Shown here one piece after another: positions 17,621 through 41,867 of a DNA stretch of 64,000 bases; positions within the stretch are counted from its first letter, which is position 1; each line of letters opens with the position of its first letter. Made by a program: the position numbers and the translations under genes. The stretch is from Octopus vulgaris (lineage: Eukaryota): assembly GCA_951406725.2 (NCBI GenBank), contig OX597821.1, positions 91,450,001 to 91,514,000 on the forward strand. Reading direction: 5' to 3'. The notes below the pieces were generated by a model. The model was not told the origin of the DNA and searched no databases. It was given only the letters and a program-made list of their open reading frames with translations.

Positions 17621-17917
17621 TATACACACATATGTGTATGCAAACACACATAAAAATATATATGCCCATACTCAAACATACAATTGTGTGTGTGTATGAG
17701 AGAGAGAGAGAGAGTATGAATATATATGAATATAACATGCTTAGCCTCTGGCTCTTCAACTACAAACATACATTAAGTATGTTGTATTGGTAAGTTTTTT
17801 TTACTACAGAGCTGCATGTATGGCATAATTTCAAACACAATAATATATGTATGTGTGTGTATATATATATATGTGTGTGTGTGTATATATATATGTATGC
17901 ATATATATCTGTATATA

Positions 17918-18037
<120 letters not shown>

Positions 18038-18187
18038 GTGAAATAGAAAGATGAATAATCTTGTTGCAGATTAATCAAAAGTTTAACCGATACCTTGGTA
18101 GCAAAAATCACAACAGAAGACAGCACGGTTGGAGGTACAAACATATGGTGTTGCAACCGTGCGTTGGTGCGGATAATTGAATATTAA

Positions 18188-18652
18188 TATTATTAGTGAA
18201 TTGAAGAAATGGAGTTGAACGAAGATTGAACAGAAATCGTTTTATTTCATTCTACACGCCCCATATAATACACCTAATATTCTTTAAATAGTCAGAACTT
18301 TACTCTCGGTCACAAAGAACATCTACGCACCCCGTGCCCTCACCCACCGGAATGACCGCTGCCTGACCCGTTAAAATCTTCAACGCACCCACCACCCGTT
18401 TTCAACATACACTGATAAACAGTTTGGCCATGGGCTCTTAGGAGCCTCGTTCGATTTGTTTTGCTCCGCCTCTGTTCTGTTTTTGTTTTTTCCAACGGAT
18501 TTCCTATTTCTTCCTGAAGAGAAAGACACAATATGGTCTCATTATTCAATCGGAATTTGGTAAATTGTGCCTTTCGAAACACGTGTAGAATGAAATAAAA
18601 CGATTTCTGTTCAATCTTCGTTCAACTCCATTTCTTCAATTCACTAATAATA
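18188..18652 (+). mobile_element. Non-autonomous Penelope-like element with a perfect 71-bp inverted repeat, ending in (TA)n
   Basis: 18188-18258 is the exact reverse complement of 18582-18652; the element contains a hammerhead motif. Confidence 0.75.
18505..18597 (+). ncRNA. Type I hammerhead ribozyme (minimal palindromic stem III)
   Basis: Stem I tatttc-ttc/gaa-t-gaaata; core CTGAAGA 18514-18520; stem II gaaagacacaat/attgtgcctttc; GAAA; stem III within the palindrome acacgtgt; GUA triplet 18585-18587. Confidence 0.85.
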
Positions 18653-19849
18653 TATATATATATATATATAGAACAATCTTACTTAGAAATAGATGTGTGC
18701 GTTCCGTCATATAATAAATTAATAAATAAATAAACTTATGCATATATATATACATATATATACGTACCTACCTCTACATGTATATATACATGCATATATG
18801 GGTACAGGACACCAAAAAAACGTCGAACTCAATGAGAATCGAAAACATAAACACAAAACCAAGGAAATGGACATTTTTCTTAAACAATGAAAAAATAGAG
18901 TACAGGACATACAAAACAAGGAAAATTCCTCTTCTTCAGTCGCCTTTGTTTCATCTACTCCACGTTTCGAAGGTCAAGGCGATACATGACTTTAATGAAA
19001 CAATCCTTCCCATGAAAATTAAATTAAATAAAATTTGAGATTTTTTTGCGGAGGGGTAAAAATGGTAACAAAAACAGGACAGTAACGACAGTACAAATTA
19101 TAAACAGTAAAAGATAGGACAAAGAGAATAACAGTAACACAAACAAGAAGGGCTGTTAAGCCAAACGAGATGAAATTTTTTACGAATGCTATTTTTGAGA
19201 AGGGCGAAGGAGCAACAGAAAGTACCGTCTCTACTTGAAGGCAGTCAGGACAGAAAGACAGTAGCAGAGTTCTCATCGTGGGTCAACGACGGGAGGGAGT
19301 AAGGGGAGTAAGAGAAAGGGAGACAAAACAGGGAGTGGTTGTAGATATATATATATATATATCAGCCGAAATTACTACGATGATCCGGTTCTTGACTGAA
19401 GACTGAGGGTTTCGAATGTCCTGTCCGTGTTTATTGTATCGTCTTCTAAGAGTTATACGTTCTTGTCCATGTTGTATTTTTCTACATACCTTAATATATA
19501 TATATATATATATACATATACACATATATGTATTTATGTGGCTATAGATACATATGAATATCGACATATATGAAATTTTGCCCATCTGTATATAAGCATT
19601 TGCATCAATATATATTTTCATAAACAAACCCAGTTACAGGCATATATAATGCAGGAATGCATGTAAATATACATATACAGTAATATCTATACTCACACAA
19701 ATATATAATATAGTATGTTTAATAATTATGGAACTAGTTATTTACTATATGAAGAAAAGATCAAATGCATTATATAGATACATGAACACGGTTTTGTAAC
19801 CTAGTAAATGTAGACATAGTAACTATCATGTTGGAATTGATGGGAGAAA

Positions 19850-25078: not shown

Positions 25079-25105
<27 letters not shown>

Positions 25106-25111
<6 letters not shown>

Positions 25112-26487
25112 GTCCCGGGTTGATTCGGGGTTAACCACAGTAAGTAAGGTACTCAATACATAGCAGAGTAAAATTAATTTATTATATAGAAGGAGCTTCT
25201 ACAGGACTAGTACTGTTTCATTCAAGAGAAATCTTCAGGAAGCTATTTAACAAGAATTGTATTAGCATTTATACATTTAGGCAGGTTTAGTAATGTTCTT
25301 CAGGGAAGTGTCGAGGTCGATTCTTGTCAGCATTTTTCTTGGTGATGGTTATAAGGGCACTAGGGTGTGCTAGGATATGTAGGTCCCGGGTTGATTCGGG
25401 GTTAACCACAGTAAGTAAGGTACTCAATACATAGCAGAGTAAAATTAATTTATTATATAGAAGGAGCTTCTACAGGACTAGTACTGTTTCATTGAAGAGA
25501 AATCTTCAGGAAGCTATTTAACAAGAATTGTATTAGCATTTATACATTTAGGCAGGTTTAGTAATGTTCTTCAGGGAAGTGTCGAGGTCGATTCTTGTCA
25601 GCATTTTTCTTGGTGATGGTTATAAGGGCACTAGGGTGTGCTAGGATATGTAGGTCCCGGGTTGATTCGGGGTTAACCACAGTAAGTAAGGTACTCAATA
25701 CATAGCAGAGTAAAATTAATTTATTATATAGAAGGAGCTTCTACAGGACTAGTACTGTTTCATTCAAGAGAAATCTTCAGGAAGCTATTTAACAAGAATT
25801 GTATTAGCATTTATACATTTAGGCAGGTTTAGTAATGTTCTTCAGGGAAGTGTCGAGGTCGATTCTTGTCAGCATTTTTCTTGGTGATGGTTATAAGGGC
25901 ACTAGGGTGTGCTAGGATATGTAGGTCCCGGGTTGATTCGGGGTTAACCACAGTAAGTAAGGTACTCAATACATAGCAGAGTAAAATTAATTTATTATAT
26001 AGAAGGAGCTTCTACAGGACTAGTACTGTTTCATTCAAGAGAAATCTTCAGGAAGCTATTTAACAAGAATTGTATTAGCATTTATACATTTAGGCAGGTT
26101 TAGTAATGTTCTTCAGGGAAGTGTCGAGGTCGATTCTTGTCAGCATTTTTCTTGGTGATGGTTATAAGGGCACTAGGGTGTGCTAGGATATGTAGGTCCC
26201 GGGTTGATTCGGGGTTAACCACAGTAAGTAAGGTACTCAATACATAGCAGAGTAAAATTAATTTATTATATAGAAGGAGCTTCTACAGGACTAGTACTGT
26301 TTCATTCAAGAGAAATCTTCAGGAAGCTATTTAACAAGAATTGTATTAGCATTTATACATTTAGGCAGGTTTAGTAATGTTCTTCAGGGAAGTGTCGAGG
26401 TCGATTCTTGTCAGCATTTTTCTTGGTGATGGTTATAAGGGCACTAGGGTGTGCTAGGATATGTAGGTCCCGGGTTGATTCGGGGTT
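25106..26487 (-). repeat. 271-bp tandem repeat, left arm (5.1 units, hammerhead on the minus strand)
   Basis: aggtcccggg recurs at 25110, 25381, 25652, 25923, 26194 and 26465 (exact 271 spacing). Confidence 0.97.
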
Positions 26488-29400
26488 CTTACTTACTGTG
26501 GTTAACCCCGAATCAACCCAGGACCTACATATCCTAGCACACCCTAGTGCCCTTATAACCATCACCAAGAAAAATGCTGACAAGAATCGACCTCACACTT
26601 CCCTGAAGAACATTACTAAACCTGCCTAAATGTATAAATGCTAATACAATTCTTGTTAAATAACTTCTGAAGATTTCTCTTGAATGAAACAGTACTAGTC
26701 CTGTAGAAACTCCTTCTATATAATAAATTAATTTTACTCTGCTATGTATTGAGTACCTTACTGTGGTTAACCCCGAATCAACCCGGGACCTACATATCCT
26801 AGCACACCCTAGTGCCCTTATAACCATCACCAAGAAAAATGCTGACAAGAATCGACCTCATTACTCCCTGAAGAACATTACTAAACCTGCCTAAATGTAT
26901 AAATGCTAATACAATTCTTGTTAAATAGCTTCCTGAAGATTTCTCTTGAATGAAACAGTACTAGTCTGTAAACTCCTTCTATATAATAAATTAATTTTAC
27001 TCTGCTATGTATTGAGTACCTTACTTACTGTGGTTAACCCCAGATCAAAGGGACTAGCATATCCTAGCACACCCTAGTGCCCTATAACCATCACCAAAAA
27101 ATGCTGACAAGAATCCACCTCGACACTTCCCTGAAGAACATTACTAAACCTGCCTAAATGTATAAATGCTAATACAATTCTTGTTAAATAACTTCCTGAA
27201 GATTTCTCTTGAATGAAACAGTACTAGTCCTGTAAACTCCTTCTATATAATAAATTAATTTTACTCTGCAATGTATTGAGTACCTTACTTACTGTGGTTA
27301 ACCCGAATCAACCCGGGACCTACATATCCTAGCACACCCTAGTGCCCTTATAACCATCACCAAGAAAAATGCTGACAAGAATCACCTCACACTTCCCTGA
27401 AGAACATTACTAAACCTGCCTAAATGTATAAATGCTAATACAATTCTTGTTAAATAGCTTCCTGAAGATTTCTCTTGAATGAAACAGTACTAGTCCTGTA
27501 GAAGCTCCTTCTATATAATAAATTAATTTTACTCTGCTATGTATTGAGTACCTTACTTACTGTGGTTAACCCCGAATCAACCCGGGACCTACATATCCTA
27601 GCACACCCTAGTGCCCTTATAACCATCACCAAGAAAAATGCTGACAAGAATCCACCTCGACACTTCCCTGAAGAACATTACTAAACCTGCCTAAATGTAT
27701 AAATGCTAATACAATTCTTGTTAAATAGCTTCCTGAAGATTTCTCTTGAATGAAACAGTACTAGTCTGTAGAAGCTCCTTCTATATAATAAATTAACTTT
27801 ACTCTGCTATGTATTGAGTACCTTACTTACTGTGGTTAACCCCGAATCAACCCGGGACCTACATATCCTAGCACACCCTAGTGCCCTTATAACCATCACC
27901 AAGAAAAATGCTGACAAGAATCGACCTCGACACTTCCCTGAAGAACATTACTAAACCTGCCTAAATGTATAAATGCTAATACAATTCTTGTTAAATAGCT
28001 TCCTGAAGATTTCTCTTGAATGAAACAGTACTAGTCCTGTAGAAGCTCCTTCTATATAATAAATTAATTTTACTCTGCTATGTATTGAGTACCTTACTTA
28101 CTGTGGTTAACCCCGAATCAACCCGGGACCTACATATCCTAGCACACCCTAGTGCCCTTATAACCATCACCAAGAAAAATGCTGACAAGAATCGACCTCG
28201 ACACTTCCCTGAAGAACATTACTAAACCTGCCTAAATGTATAAATGCTAATACAATTCTTGTTAAATAGCTTCCTGAAGATTTCTCTTGAATGAAACAGT
28301 ACTAGTCCTGTAGAAGCTCCTTCTATATAATAAATTAATTTTACTCTGCTATGTATTGAGTACCTTACTTACTGTGGTTAACCCCGAATCAACCCGGGAC
28401 CTACATATCCTAGCACACCTAGTGCCCTTATAACCATCACCAAGAAAAATGCTGACAAGAATCGACCTCGACACTTCCCTGAAGAACATTACTAAACCTG
28501 CCTAAATGTATAAATGCTAATACAATTCTTGTTAAATAGCTTCCTGAAGATTTCTCTTGAATGAAACAGTACTAGTCCTGTAGAAGCTCCTTCTATATAA
28601 TAAATTAATTTTACTCTGCTATGTATTGAGTACCTTACTTACTGTGGTTAACCCCGAATCAACCCGGGACCTACATATCCTAGCACACCCTAGTGCCCTT
28701 ATAACCATCACCAAGAAAAATGCTGACAAGAATCGACCTCGACACTTCCCTGAAGAACATTACTAAACCTGCCTAAATGTATAAATGCTAATACAATTCT
28801 TGTTAAATAACTTCCTGAAGATTTCTCTTGAATGAAACAGTACTAGTCCTGTAGAAGCTCCTTACTTACTGTGGTTAACCCCGAATCAACCCGGGACCTA
28901 CATATCCTAGCACACCCTTGTGCCCTTATAACCATCACCAAGAAAAATGCTGACAAGAATCGACCTCGACACTTCCCTGAAGAACATTACTAAACCTGCC
29001 TAAATGTATAAATGCTAATACAATTCTTGTTAAATAGCTTCCTGAAGATTTCTCTTGAATGAAACAGTACTAGTCCTGTAGAAGCTCCTTCTATATAATA
29101 AATTAATTTTACTCTGCTATGTATTGAGTACCTTACTTACTGTGGTTAACCCCGAATCAACCCGGGACCTACATATCCTAGCACACCCTAGTGCCCTTAT
29201 AACCATCACCAAGAAAAATGCTGACAAGAATCGACCTCGACACTTCCCTGAAGAACATTACTAAACCTGCCTAAATGTATAAATGCTAATACAATTCTTG
29301 TTAAATAGCTTCCTGAAGATTTCTCTTGAATGAAACAGTACTAGTCCTGTAGAAGCTCCTTCTATATAATAAATTAATTTTACTCTGCAATGTATTGAGT

Positions 29401-32400
29401 ACCTTACTTACTGTGGTTAACCCCGAATCAACCCGGGACCTACATATCCTAGCACACCCTAGTGCCCTTATAACCATCACCAAGAAAAATGCTGACAAGA
29501 ATCGACCTCGACACTTCCCTGAAGAACATTACTAAACCTGCCTAAATGTATAAATGCTAATACAATTCTTGTTAAATAGCTTCCTGAAGATTTCTCTTGA
29601 ATGAAACAGTACTAGTCCTGTAGAAGCTCCTTCTATATAATAAATTAATTTTACTCTGCTATGTATTGAGTACCTTACTTACTGTGGTTAACCCCGAATC
29701 AACCCGGGACCTACATATCCTAGCACACCCTAGTGCCCTTATAACCATCACCAAGAAAAATGCTGACAAGAATCCACCTCGACACTTCCCTGAAGAACAT
29801 TACTAAACCTGCCTAAATGTATAAATGCTAATACAATTCTTGTTAAATAGCTTCCTGAAGATTTCTCTTGAATGAAACAGTACTAGTCCTGTAGAAGCTC
29901 CTTCTATATAATAAATTAACTTTACTCTGCTATGTATTGAGTACCTTACTTACTGTGGTTAACCCCGAATCAACCCGGGACCTACATATCCTAGCACACC
30001 CTAGTGCCCTTATAACCATCACCAAGAAAAATGCTGACAAGAATCGACCTCGACACTTCCCTGAAGAACATTACTAAACCTGCCTAAATGTATAAATGCT
30101 AATACAATTCTTGTTAAATAGCTTCCTGAAGATTTCTCTTGAATGAAACAGTACTAGTCCTGTAGAAGCTCCTTCTATATAATAAATTAATTTTACTCTG
30201 CTATGTATTGAGTACCTTACTTACTGTGGTTAACCCCGAATCAACCCGGGACCTACATATCCTAGCACACCCTAGTGCCCTTATAACCATCACCAAGAAA
30301 AATGCTGACAAGAATCCACCTCGACACTTCCCTGAAGAACATTACTAAACCTGCCTAAATGTATAAATGCTAATACAATTCTTGTTAAATAGCTTCCTGA
30401 AGATTTCTCTTGAATGAAACAGTACTAGTCCTGTAGAAGCTCCTTCTATATAATAAATTAACTTTACTCTGCTATGTATTGAGTACCTTACTTACTGTGG
30501 TTAACCCCGAATCAACCCGGGACCTACATATCCTAGCACACCCTAGTGCCCTTATAACCATCACCAAGAAAAATGCTGACAAGAATCGACCTCGACACTT
30601 CCCTGAAGAACATTACTAAACCTGCCTAAATGTATAAATGCTAATACAATTCTTGTTAAATAGCTTCCTGAAGATTTCTCTTGAATGAAACAGTACTAGT
30701 CCTGTAGAAGCTCCTTCTATATAATAAATTAATTTTACTCTGCTATGTATTGAGTACCTTACTTACTGTGGTTAACCCCGAATCAACCCGGGACCTACAT
30801 ATCCTAGCACACCCTAGTGCCCTTATAACCATCACCAAGAAAAATGCTGACAAGAATCGACCTCGACACTTCCCTGAAGAACATTACTAAACCTGCCTAA
30901 ATGTATAAATGCTAATACAATTCTTGTTAAATAGCTTCCTGAAGATTTCTCTTGAATGAAACAGTACTAGTCCTGTAGAAGCTCCTTCTATATAATAAAT
31001 TAATTTTACTCTGCTATGTATTGAGTACCTTACTTACTGTGGTTAACCCCGAATCAACCCGGGACCTACATATCCTAGCACACCCTAGTGCCCTTATAAC
31101 CATCACCAAGAAAAATGCTGACAAGAATCGACCTCGACACTTCCCTGAAGAACATTACTAAACCTGCCTAAATGTATAAATGCTAATACAATTCTTGTTA
31201 AATAGCTTCCTGAAGATTTCTCTTGAATGAAACAGTACTAGTCCTGTAGAAGCTCCTTCTATATAATAAATTAATTTTACTCTGCTATGTATTGAGTACC
31301 TTACTTACTGTGGTTAACCCCGAATCAACCCGGGACCTACATATCCTAGCACACCCTAGTGCCCTTATAACCATCACCAAGAAAATGCTGACAAGAATCG
31401 ACCTCGACACTTCCCTGAAGAACATTACTAAACCTGCCTAAATGTATAAATGCTAATACAATTCTTGTTAAATAGCTTCCTGAAGATTTCTCTTGAATGA
31501 AACAGTACTAGTCCTGTAGAAGCTCCTTACTTACTGTGGTTAACCCCGAATCAACCCGGGACCTACATATCCTAGCACACCCTTGTGCCCTTATAACCAT
31601 CACCAAGAAAAATGCTGACAAGAATCGACCTCGACACTTCCCTGAAGAACATTACTAAACCTGCCTAAATGTATAAATGCTAATACAATTCTTGTTAAAT
31701 AGCTTCCTGAAGATTTCTCTTGAATGAAACAGTACTAGTCCTGTAGAAGCTCCTTCTATATAATAAATTAATTTTACTCTGCTATGTATTGAGTACCTTA
31801 CTTACTGTGGTTAACCCCGAATCAACCCGGGACCTACATATCCTAGCACACCCTAGTGCCCTTATAACCATCACCAAGAAAAATGCTGACAAGAATCGAC
31901 CTCGACACTTCCCTGAAGAACATTACTAAACCTGCCTAAATGTATAAATGCTAATACAATTCTTGTTAAATAGCTTCCTGAAGATTTCTCTTGAATGAAA
32001 CAGTACTAGTCCTGTAGAAGCTCCTTCTATATAATAAATTAATTTTACTCTGCAATGTATTGAGTACCTTACTTACTGTGGTTAACCCCGAATCAACCCG
32101 GGACCTACATATCCTAGCACACCCTAGTGCCCTTATAACCATCACCAAGAAAAATGCTGACAAGAATCGACCTCGACACTTCCCTGAAGAACATTACTAA
32201 ACCTGCCTAAATGTATAAATGCTAATACAATTCTTGTTAAATAGCTTCCTGAAGATTTCTCTTGAATGAAACAGTACTAGTCCTGTAGAAGCTCCTTCTA
32301 TATAATAAATTAATTTTACTCTGCTATGTATTGAGTACCTTACTTACTGTGGTTAACCCCGAATCAACCCGGGACCTACATATCCTAGCACACCCTAGTG

Positions 32401-33388
32401 CCCTTATAACCATCACCAAGAAAAATGCTGACAAGAATCCACCTCGACACTTCCCTGAAGAACATTACTAAACCTGCCTAAATGTATAAATGCTAATACA
32501 ATTCTTGTTAAATAGCTTCCTGAAGATTTCTCTTGAATGAAACAGTACTAGTCCTGTAGAAGCTCCTTCTATATAATAAATTAACTTTACTCTGCTATGT
32601 ATTGAGTACCTTACTTACTGTGGTTAACCCCGAATCAACCCGGGACCTACATATCCTAGCACACCCTAGTGCCCTTATAACCATCACCAAGAAAAATGCT
32701 GACAAGAATCGACCTCGACACTTCCCTGAAGAACATTACTAAACCTGCCTAAATGTATAAATGCTAATACAATTCTTGTTAAATAGCTTCCTGAAGATTT
32801 CTCTTGAATGAAACAGTACTAGTCCTGTAGAAGCTCCTTCTATATAATAAATTAATTTTACTCTGCTATGTATTGAGTACCTTACTTACTGTGGTTAACC
32901 CCGAATCAACCCGGGACCTACATATCCTAGCACACCCTAGTGCCCTTATAACCATCACCAAGAAAAATGCTGACAAGAATCGACCTCGACACTTCCCTGA
33001 AGAACATTACTAAACCTGCCTAAATGTATAAATGCTAATACAATTCTTGTTAAATAGCTTCCTGAAGATTTCTCTTCAATGAAACAGTACTAGTCCTGTA
33101 GAAGCTCCTTCTATATAATAAATTAATTTTACTCTGCTATGTATTGAGTACCTTACTTACTGTGGTTAACCCCGAATCAACCCGGGACCTACATATCCTA
33201 GCACACCCTAGTGCCCTTATAACCATCACCAAGAAAAATGCTGACAAGAATCGACCTCGACACTTCCCTGAAGAACATTACTAAACCTGCCTAAATGTAT
33301 AAATGCTAATACAATTCTTGTTAAATAGCTTCCTGAAGATTTCTCTTGAATGAAACAGTACTAGTCCTGTAGAAGCTCCTTCTATATA

Positions 33389-33393
<5 letters not shown>
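26488..33393 (+). repeat. 271-bp tandem repeat, right arm (~26 units, hammerhead on the plus strand); retrozyme-like array
   Basis: Reverse complement of the left-arm unit, near-identical copies; two units carry a 45-bp deletion. Confidence 0.97.
27997..28047 (+). ncRNA. Type I hammerhead ribozyme (representative copy; one per 271-bp unit)
   Basis: Stem I AGCTTC/GAAGCT; core CTGAAGA 28003-28009; stem II t-TTC-tctt-GAA-t; GAA; stem III ACAG-tactagtc-CTGT; predicted cleavage after GUA (A28041). Confidence 0.85.
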
Positions 33394-33440
<47 letters not shown>

Positions 33441-33451
<11 letters not shown>

Positions 33452-33640
33452 TATAGAAGGAGCTACAGGACTAGAACTGTTTCATTCAAGAGAAATCTTC
33501 AGGAAGAGCTTCCTGAAGATTTCTCTTGAATGAAACAGTCCTAGTCCTGTAGAAGCTCCTTCTATATAATAAATTAATTTTACTCTGCTATGTATTGAGT
33601 ACCTTATTTACTGTGGTTAACCCCGAATCAACCCGGGACC

Positions 33641-33645
<5 letters not shown>
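33441..33645. mobile_element. Terminal module: inverted partial unit plus direct partial unit of the 271-bp repeat, between (TA)n tracts
   Basis: 33441-33506 is a minus-orientation hammerhead region and 33507-33645 is plus orientation ending gggacctacat(at)n; it carries private SNPs. Confidence 0.85.
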
Positions 33646-39011: not shown

Positions 39012-39800
39012 AAGGCGACGAGCTGACAGAAACGTAAGCACGCCGGGTGAAATGCTTGCCGGTATTTCGTCTGCCGTTACGTTCTGAGTTCAAATTCCGC
39101 CGAGGTCGACTTTGCCTTTCATCCTTTCGGGGTCGATTAAATAAATACCAGTTACGCACTGGGGTCGATATAATCGACTTAATCCGTTTGTCTGTCCTTG
39201 TTTGTCCTCTCTGTGTTTAGCCCCTTGTGAGTAATAAAGAAATAGGTATTTCCTCTGCCGCTACGTTCTGAGTTCAAATTCCGCCGAGGTCGACTTTGCC
39301 TTTCATCCTTTCGGGGGTCGATTAAATAAATACCAGTTACGCACTGGGGGCGATATAATCGACTTAATCCGTTTGTCTGTCCTTGTTTGTCCTCTATTTG
39401 TGTTTAGCCCCTTGTGAGTAGTGAAGAAATAAGTATTTCCTTTGCCGCTACGTTCTGAGTTCAAATTCCGCCGAGGGCGACTTTGCCTTTCATCCTTTCG
39501 GGGGTCGATTAAATAAATACCAGTTACGCACTGGGGGCGATATAATCGACTTAATCCGTTTGTCTGTCCTTGTTTGTCCTCTCTGTGTTTAGCCCCTTGT
39601 GAGTAATAAAGAAATAGGTATTTCCTCTGCCGCTACGTTCTGAGTTCAAATTCCGCCGAGGGCGACTTTGCCTTTTATCCTTTCGGGGTCGATTAAATAA
39701 GTGCCAGTTATCCACTAGGGTCGATATAATCGACTTAATCTGTTTATCTGTCCTTGTTCGTCCCCTCTGGGTGCAGCTCTTTGTGGGTAGTAAAGAAAAA
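39012..39800 (+). repeat. Tandem array of 4 SINE family B bodies (~185-bp period)
   Basis: tacgttctgagttcaaattccgccgagg...gccccttgtgagta repeated 4 times; only the first copy has the A-box head. Confidence 0.9.
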
Positions 39801-40689: not shown

Positions 40690-41019
40690 ATTTTTCCTCC
40701 TTTTCCACTGTCCAAAGAAGGATAACATCTGAAATGTTACTGCGCTTAATTCTTACCATTTCCCTAAGCAACAAACTTATATTATTGATGGTAAACTTAT
40801 TTCACCTATACATGATTGTGTATGTATGTATGTACGTATGTATGCATGTATGTATGTATGTATGTATGTACCAAGTTGTCAAAAGATTTTTCGTATTTCA
40901 AGCTTTAATTAAAAATTCAAAGAAACTAGATCCGAAAAGCCTTTAATCATCAAAATATAACTCATCATATTTTATTCTCTGATGCCAATAATGCAGAGGG
41001 GACAAACAATGCATAGTGG

Positions 41020-41867
41020 TGTTTCGTCTGTCATTACGTTCTGAGTTCAAATTCCGTTGAGGTCAACTTTGCCTTTCATCCTTTCGGGGGTCGATTAAAT
41101 AAGTGCCAGTTACGTGCTGGGGTCGATGTAATCGACTTAATCCCTTTGTCTGTCCTTGTTTGTCCCCTCTGTGTTTAGCCCCTTGTGGGTAATAAAGAAA
41201 TAGGTATTTCGTCTGCGAGCTGGCAGAATCGTTAGCACGCCGGACGGAATGCTTAGCGGTATTTCGTCTGTCTTCACATTCTGAGTTCAAATTCCGCCGA
41301 GGTCGACTTTGCCTTTCATCCTTTCGGGGGTCGATTAAATAAGTGCCAGTTACGTGCTGGGGTCGATGTAATCGACTTAATCCCTTTGTCTGTCCTTGTT
41401 TGTCCCCTCTGTGTTTAGCCCCTTGTGGGTAATAAAGAAATAGGTATTTCGTCTGCGAGCTGGCAGAATCGTTAGCACGCCGGACGGAATGCTTAGCGGT
41501 ATTTCGTCTGTCTTCACATTCTGAGTTCAAATTCCGCCGAGGTCGACTTTGCCTTTCATCCTTTCGGGGTCGATTAAATAAGTACCAGTTACGCACTGGG
41601 GTCGATATAATCGACTTAATCCGTTTGTCTGTCCTTGTTTGTCCTCTCTGTGTTTAGCCCCTTGTGGGTAGTACAGAAATAGGTATTTCGTCTGCCATTA
41701 CGTTCTGAGTTCAAATTCCGTTGAGGTCAACTTTGCCTTTCATCCTTTCGGGGGTCGATTAAATAAGTGCCAGTTACGTGCTGGGGTCGATGTAATCGAC
41801 TTAATCCCTTTGTCTGTCCTTGTTTGTCCATTCTATGCTTAGCCCCTTGTGGGCAATAAAGAAAGAA
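41020..41867 (+). repeat. Tandem array of 4 SINE family B bodies (periods 240, 240, ~184)
   Basis: ctgagttcaaattccg at 41041, 41281, 41521 and 41705; two units include the A-box head. Confidence 0.9.

Follow-up and report, generated by a model that had tools for sequence, protein, structure and literature searches.

The window analysed here is a stretch of 64,000 nucleotides of the Octopus vulgaris genome (contig OX597821.1, positions 91,450,001 to 91,514,000 of the forward strand), and window positions are counted from its first base. The feature under study is a 5'-truncated insertion of a young Hydra-like Penelope-like element (PLE). The whole insertion is about 620 bp long (18033/36-18652), truncated, arranged head to head, and flanked on both sides by (TA)n target tracts (17860-18034 on the left, 18651-18670 on the right). 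Element coordinates (+/-) are counted from the predicted hammerhead cut, with +1 at window position 18588 (the first base after the cut) and 0 at 18587; family-wide positions use the natural copy L112 as a reference, which is separated from the window copy by small indels. The long arm (18033-18258, reverse strand) holds element sequence from -5 to about +217/+220, and its 3' end is the fixed long end of the family. The short arm (18257-18652, forward strand) holds 3' UTR/pseudo-LTR sequence from -330 to +65 and ends at the fixed short end of the family. The arms meet in a head-to-head junction at 18257-18258, where the dinucleotide CG is common to both (2-nt microhomology).

A perfect 71-bp inverted repeat had been described for this locus and is exact, 18188-18258 (reverse strand) being the reverse complement of 18582-18652 (forward strand) at 71 of 71 positions; the inverted copy does stop inside the palindrome of hammerhead stem III, as had been stated, with six bases 5' of the predicted cut included. 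Two points were missed in the original prediction: the element sequence in the left arm (18033/36-18258) spans about 223 bp instead of 71 bp, and the family to which both arms belong numbers thousands of copies. The left half of the repeat is that part of the long arm which is repeated in the short arm, and the 71-bp repeat is simply the overlap of what both arms happened to cover. Taken singly, the locus is an ordinary truncated copy.

The short arm contains a predicted type I hammerhead of a retroelement family at 18505-18597 (forward strand), with core and three stems located where they had been placed before. Stem I (18505-13/18588-97) consists of 3 bp, a bulge and 6 bp, the core CTGAAGA lies at 18514-18520, and stem II (18521-18532/18564-18575) pairs at 11 positions with a single A-C mismatch, in agreement with the 12 bp with one mismatch described originally. 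These are followed by GAAA at 18576-79 and by the stem III palindrome ACACGTGT at 18579-18586; the cleavage triplet is GUA, with a predicted cut after 18587. Conserved core, G10.1-C11.1 pair, NUH triplet and three stems are all present, and the motif was the sole match of a generic hammerhead scan of both strands of the window, whereas an Rfam scan of the window yielded no match at the gathering score. Stem III has just 2 bp in the monomer, and the self-duplex of the 8-nt palindrome was calculated at -10.3 kcal/mol. The hammerhead-constrained fold reached -11.9 kcal/mol vs a free minimum of -14.2 kcal/mol, and the pairing probability of stems I and II was 0-0.1 when folded with the leader from 18421. 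A palindromic stem III with a weak monomer fold is like the dimer-type hammerheads of animal PLEs (PMC4209133). An alignment of the stems from 93 arms (45 distinct) contained sequences too alike to covary.

Regarding the family as a whole, a search of the 2.8 Gb genome yielded 2,877 candidates, of which 40 were scored, the top matches being 95-99% identical. Exact-pattern counts across the genome gave 1,574 long-end copies and 1,539 intact cut-site 23-mers, and 2,826 arms genome-wide carry the core just downstream of the hammerhead (2,334 + 492, see below). The unit in tandem is 3,625 nt (tandems 3,624-3,625 nt) with an ATG at +268. The ORF, reached upstream in longer copies, comprises 895-904 aa and is unbroken in five sampled loci. 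Unbroken full-length ORFs were seen in L034 (5390-8116), L083, L112, L131 and L136. A single ORF carries the reverse transcriptase (RT) motifs FDIASFYPSI and YRDD along with a GIY-YIG region at the C terminus (AVY..YVG; conserved R, H, E and N), the domains being named from a reading of the motifs; a Pfam search with the ORF and three relatives gave no significant match, and a PDB sequence search with the protein alignment gave no match. Protein homologues numbered 417 at E<=0.001 among 8,000 scored candidates, and among the matches listed the homologue with an informative source name was from the cephalopod Argonauta hians. Between subfamilies dN/dS was about 0.2, both in the RT and in the linker plus endonuclease (EN) region (L034 vs four others), which indicates past selection on the ORF. 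The protein is enlarged by about 200 aa through two Asn/Ser-rich inserts; these evolve faster than the RT in this family, as reported for rotifer PLEs.

The element shows partial-tandem pseudo-LTRs (pLTRs), an inverted 5'-truncated copy and a tail at one end, as PLEs do, and also a type I hammerhead with a palindromic stem III in the pLTR (compare PMC4209133). Insertion into (TA)n is as in the Hydra clade, and the markers RIRWL (RW; the K of RWK is not kept), SDKTRN (DKT), CNLC (CxxC) and CPH (CxH) of that clade are present in most copies. The CCHH motif is absent from the element protein in an alignment with eight relatives, made up of the element, seven of 120 listed homologues and one other element of the same genome. 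The linker motif CxCX5C is reduced to its first Cys in the peptides of the element (the 12 commonest of 54 matches, one row being unrelated sequence), whereas CxC is kept in seven of the eight aligned relatives and the eighth keeps C..C-P. Because this Hydra-clade linker motif is lost, the element is called Hydra-like, a derived variant; the assignment was made from motifs, architecture and target. Identity as Neptune was dropped, since CCHH and CX2-5CxxC are absent and Hydra markers are present, and a non-LTR retrozyme was rejected, since the unit is 3.6 kb and coding, not a short non-coding tandem. A second Hydra-like ORF was seen in tandem in L035 (4106-6289 and 7460-9298, reverse strand); its open frame of 727 aa is 36% identical to the protein of the main family and its linker is more typical.

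The ends of the insertions were studied in 109 loci, which comprised 90 loci from the first 100 listed long-end places, all on one contig (tandem neighbours merged, the last four places left out), and 20 further hammerhead-bearing loci outside the long-end list, less one duplicate. Two 3' ends are fixed: short stops (+57 to +70) adjoin (TA)n in 72 of 73 cases and long stops (+216 to +220) in 94 of 95, while six long-site matches continue into the ORF. The tail between the short end (about +60) and the long end (about +218) is about 155 nt. Inverted pairs nearly always carry one end of each type. The partners of 88 long-end arms were an inverted short arm in 56 cases and a long arm in none; for 23 no partner was detected (some of these arms carry tiny short-arm remnants), eight had another end and one lay at the locus edge, and a three-arm structure (L094) also contains one short-short pair. 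Among 88 loci chosen regardless of end type (L171-L258), 67 long-short, one short-short and no long-long pairs were found, with five other pairs and 17 unpaired cases. The overall tally of inverted pairs is 123 long-short, one short-short and no long-long. An apparent fixed start at query position 218 in the genome search was an artefact of the window copy's own junction. Other sequence of 240-550 nt was seen between the arms of the inverted pairs in L065, L114, L094 and L133, and in L114 near-identical foreign sequence precedes both arms, each of which starts at 0. The (TA)n targets are frequently at the ends of other repeats. Beside the insertion in L011 lies a helicase-like coding stretch (600-1370), which we take to be PIF1/Helitron-like.

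The 5' ends of the arms are variable, with one sharp hotspot. A pattern for breaks within -161 to -182 gave 192 matches; of these, 100 were listed, and 81 were tallied by hand after removal of 19 that were indels or subfamily variants (the first 30 rows agreed with a script). Position -167 takes 33 of the 81 breakpoints, among 22 positions (p about 1e-21), followed by -163 (10), -166 (7) and -168 (5), the remainder being scattered. At -167, 22 of 33 breaks have an extra G as the adjoining base, read on the RNA strand; for breaks at neighbouring positions the figure is 10 of 43 (p=2e-4). Genome-wide, copies departing at -167 have the extra G in 93 of 142 cases and A or T in 49, counts to which substitutions in copies without a break may contribute a few. 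Short arms also stop at -167, not long arms alone (L146, L162, L163, L166 and L170). In the window, the A at -167 lies at 18421 (forward strand) within CAGTT, which in our estimation resembles the initiator consensus; the window copy reads through it. An untemplated G at complete 5' ends is interpreted as a reverse-transcribed cap in L1 and SVA (PMC4859970), and in Penelope of D. virilis the transcription start is inside the pLTR, as cited in PMC8557442. The hotspot and the extra G thus suggest that Pol II starts a capped transcript at position -167 (18421), which lies 167 nt upstream of the hammerhead, and this position is likely such a start, as judged from sequence patterns. The templates would have been uncut when copied. 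That short arms stop at -167 as long arms do indicates that the short arms are RNA-templated.

We consider the best explanation, and a probable one, to be that reverse transcription starts at two internal sites on a capped, uncleaved sense RNA and that the cDNAs are joined head to head. The endonuclease of the element would likely cut both strands of a (TA)n tract; the reverse transcriptase would likely start twice, at two fixed internal sites at about +60 and about +218, on a template that is likely capped, uncleaved sense RNA from one source copy. There would be one priming per target end, both fixed ends thus being putative priming sites, and the two cDNA ends would be joined via microhomology of at least 2 nt or by snap-back. 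We infer, rather than observe, that the endonuclease makes these cuts, in what order the primings occur and what the ribozyme really does; the ribozyme would likely act outside integration (e.g., on multimeric or read-through RNA, as a dimer via the palindrome) or cut rarely. If double priming is the explanation, the end of the 71-bp repeat inside the palindrome would be due to chance.

Mismatch between the arms of a pair was 0.45%, vs 1.55% between loci of the same subtype; subtypes agreed within 41 of 42 pairs, and of the rare variants 10 were common to both arms and 28 were not. The low mismatch and the subtype agreement indicate that both arms derive from one source, although conversion after insertion could also have made the arms similar; likewise, the partner arm could be the origin of some extra Gs. 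Regarding the 56 long-short pairs, the junction overlap was at least 2 nt in 34 (BLAST end points). Both arms reach past the start site in seven of the 56, so a single pLTR-ORF-pLTR transcript providing one arm per end cannot explain all pairs.

A different route to the same structure would be a single priming at +218, fold-back of the cDNA and a DNA-templated second strand, after which the endonuclease cuts at the A/T-rich +60 and joins the other target end. The arms start no more than 10 nt apart in 14 of the 56 pairs (2.8 expected by permutation), often at natural palindromes, and the short arm lies wholly inside the long arm in 10 more; these pairs fit cDNA fold-back as well as double priming. 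Fold-back would also account for the recurring snap-back-like junctions at -167/-163 and the near identity of the arms, and resolution of the tail by the endonuclease is suggested in PMC8557442. However, in 28 of the 56 pairs (hand count), and in the window copy (-330 vs -5), the short arm has upstream sequence absent from the long arm and so could not have been copied from the long cDNA, unless the latter was trimmed later; in addition, short arms end at the cap-like site independently. Without such trimming, fold-back would explain only part of the pairs, and as a general account we consider it unlikely.

The original prediction tied the inversion breakpoint to the ribozyme-processed end and suggested testing whether breakpoints in genomic copies cluster at the cleavage site; in a model of this kind, hammerhead cleavage would make the RNA end and the inversion would form at RT run-off. 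A pattern selecting departures from the element within +27 to -30 matched 492 arms vs 2,334 arms keeping the expected base, so that the hammerhead is intact in most arms. The loci behind 100 listed of the 492 matches were rebuilt by script; five flagged indels and three breaks beyond -26 were removed, leaving 92 breakpoints, of which three are small indels or substitutions scored at the first mismatch, and a separate hand tally of 93 gave the same picture. No clustering was found: nine-nt bins over -26 to +27 held 13, 15, 15, 18, 17 and 14 breakpoints (chi-square p=0.95), two breakpoints were at +1 vs 1.7 expected, and -4 to -6, where the window copy breaks, held two vs 5.1 expected. The interval +1 to -1 held 10 vs 5.1 expected, some in symmetric junctions, a weak excess (uncorrected p=0.03, both arms of symmetric loci counted), and a minority of templates may be cleaved. 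The stop rate over +27 to -29 was 0.49% per nt in 88 long arms and 0.43% per nt in 59 short arms, which exceeds the immediate neighbours; over -144 to -200 it was higher (0.55% and 0.87% per nt, respectively). An apparent cluster near -92 was in fact spread over -88 to -102. The flat distribution shows that the cut is not a hotspot, while a minor contribution is possible. The window copy breaks 3-6 nt from the cut, as such a model would have it, but its arm keeps at least four bases (TGTA) 5' of the cut, which a cleaved 3' product would be without. The dominant fixed 5' end instead lies 167 nt upstream, with its extra G, and no 3' ends at the cut were found in 20 genome-wide rows (one 18-mer anchor, covering only some subfamilies). 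A breakpoint set by cleavage is therefore largely refuted as the rule and highly improbable as the general origin of these junctions.

Self-priming of an antisense transcript, as modelled for rotifer PLEs (PMC3846280), would also give head-to-head palindromic junctions, which are common in the octopus family too, with -167 as an antisense RNA end, but it has very little likelihood here, given that in every arm the sense 3' end is fixed on (TA)n and the sense 5' end varies, and that the hotspot falls on an initiator-like A in sense orientation, with one extra G.

Double priming on sense RNA, as favoured above, can be compared with known systems. Canonical hammerheads, (TA)n targets and inverted truncated copies have already been described for Hydra PLEs, one of these elements (Hydra-1_Obim) being from Octopus bimaculoides (Craig et al. 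2021, PMC8557442). The family described here is like this clade of C-terminal EN+ PLEs in its single ORF with RT and C-terminal GIY-YIG, its RW(K)-type and DKT motifs, the absence of CCHH, the CxxC and CxH around conserved E and N, the palindromic stem III of its canonical hammerhead, its (TA)n targets and its inverted 5'-truncated copy. It differs in a unit of 3.6 kb (under 3 kb in the Hydra clade as described there) with two Asn/Ser-rich inserts, in a linker with one Cys in place of CxCX5C, in a tail of about 155 nt vs 30-40 nt, and, compared by eye, in hammerhead stems other than those listed for Hydra-1_Obim in the supplement of PMC8557442. PAc/Poseidon of Anolis carolinensis (Frangieh et al. 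2024, PMC11167929) is alike in having two internal RT starts downstream of the hammerhead that define the tail, seen in vitro, and in its A/T-rich targets; cleavage is not needed for insertion, ribozyme mutants inserting normally there. Double priming as proposed here would extend this in vitro finding. The start sites of PAc are adjacent, inside the ORF and without strand preference in vitro, whereas the putative ones described here lie upstream of the ATG (+268), separated by about 155 nt, with one used at each insertion end. Penelope of Adineta vaga (Arkhipova et al. 2013, PMC3846280) shares inverted pLTRs with palindromic junctions, a tail on one inverted pLTR, an initiator-like motif in the pLTR and Asn-rich ORF inserts; there antisense self-priming and a tail of 31 bp are given, whereas the extra-G hotspot of the octopus family points to a capped sense template. 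The double-priming reading also disagrees with the ribozyme-defined unit ends of PMC4209133.

Features of this variant are thus the tail of about 155 nt, the strict long-short end pairing, the cap signature and the lost linker zinc motif. The arms produced by twin priming of L1 are not known to overlap. LINE-1 twin priming with a cap-derived untemplated G (reviewed in PMC4859970) is alike in 5' inversion by a second primer and in the extra G at complete 5' ends, but the first primer of L1 uses the poly(A) end, whereas here both ends are fixed and internal and the arms usually overlap. In the literature consulted, mostly papers outside subscription and in their available sections, no report of a cap-G hotspot, of strict long-short pairing or of such a tail length in a PLE was found. 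That the element still targets (TA)n after losing the linker motif is at odds with the association proposed in PMC8557442. The formation of inverted pLTRs and tails in PLEs, the strand copied and the role of the hammerhead are stated to be open in PMC8557442, PMC3846280, PMC11167929 and PMC4209133. The present family is young, has unbroken ORFs and numbers thousands of copies; it provides base-level coordinates for a likely start site, two putative priming sites and a predicted ribozyme, which makes these questions directly testable, and for this family it argues against the antisense and the ribozyme-defined-end models. For Hydra-type PLEs at large we give an even chance to an obligatory two-site reaction, in which one RNP would prime once at each fixed internal site on capped, uncleaved sense RNA, one priming per target end, in which the hammerhead would have no part in the inserted ends and in which the linker zinc motif would not be needed for (TA)n targeting, a rule perhaps general to PLE-mobilised RNAs.

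The window also contains a repeat with a 271-bp unit, which had been regarded as unrelated to the hammerhead-bearing sequence; a comparison with the PLE family detected no similarity, the best local score being 28 vs a maximum of 30 in 100 shuffles. The 271-bp repeat (25104-33394 and 33443-33645) has its own hammerhead-like motif, and each of its two insertions is inverted head to head and lies between (TA)n tracts, one arm ending, by eye, about 25 nt and the other about 95 nt past the predicted cut. As the same long-plus-short rule is seen in this unrelated non-coding family, it may be general to PLE-mobilised RNAs. Tandem arrays with 185-240-bp units of a related short repeat occupy 39061-39798 and 41008-41864.
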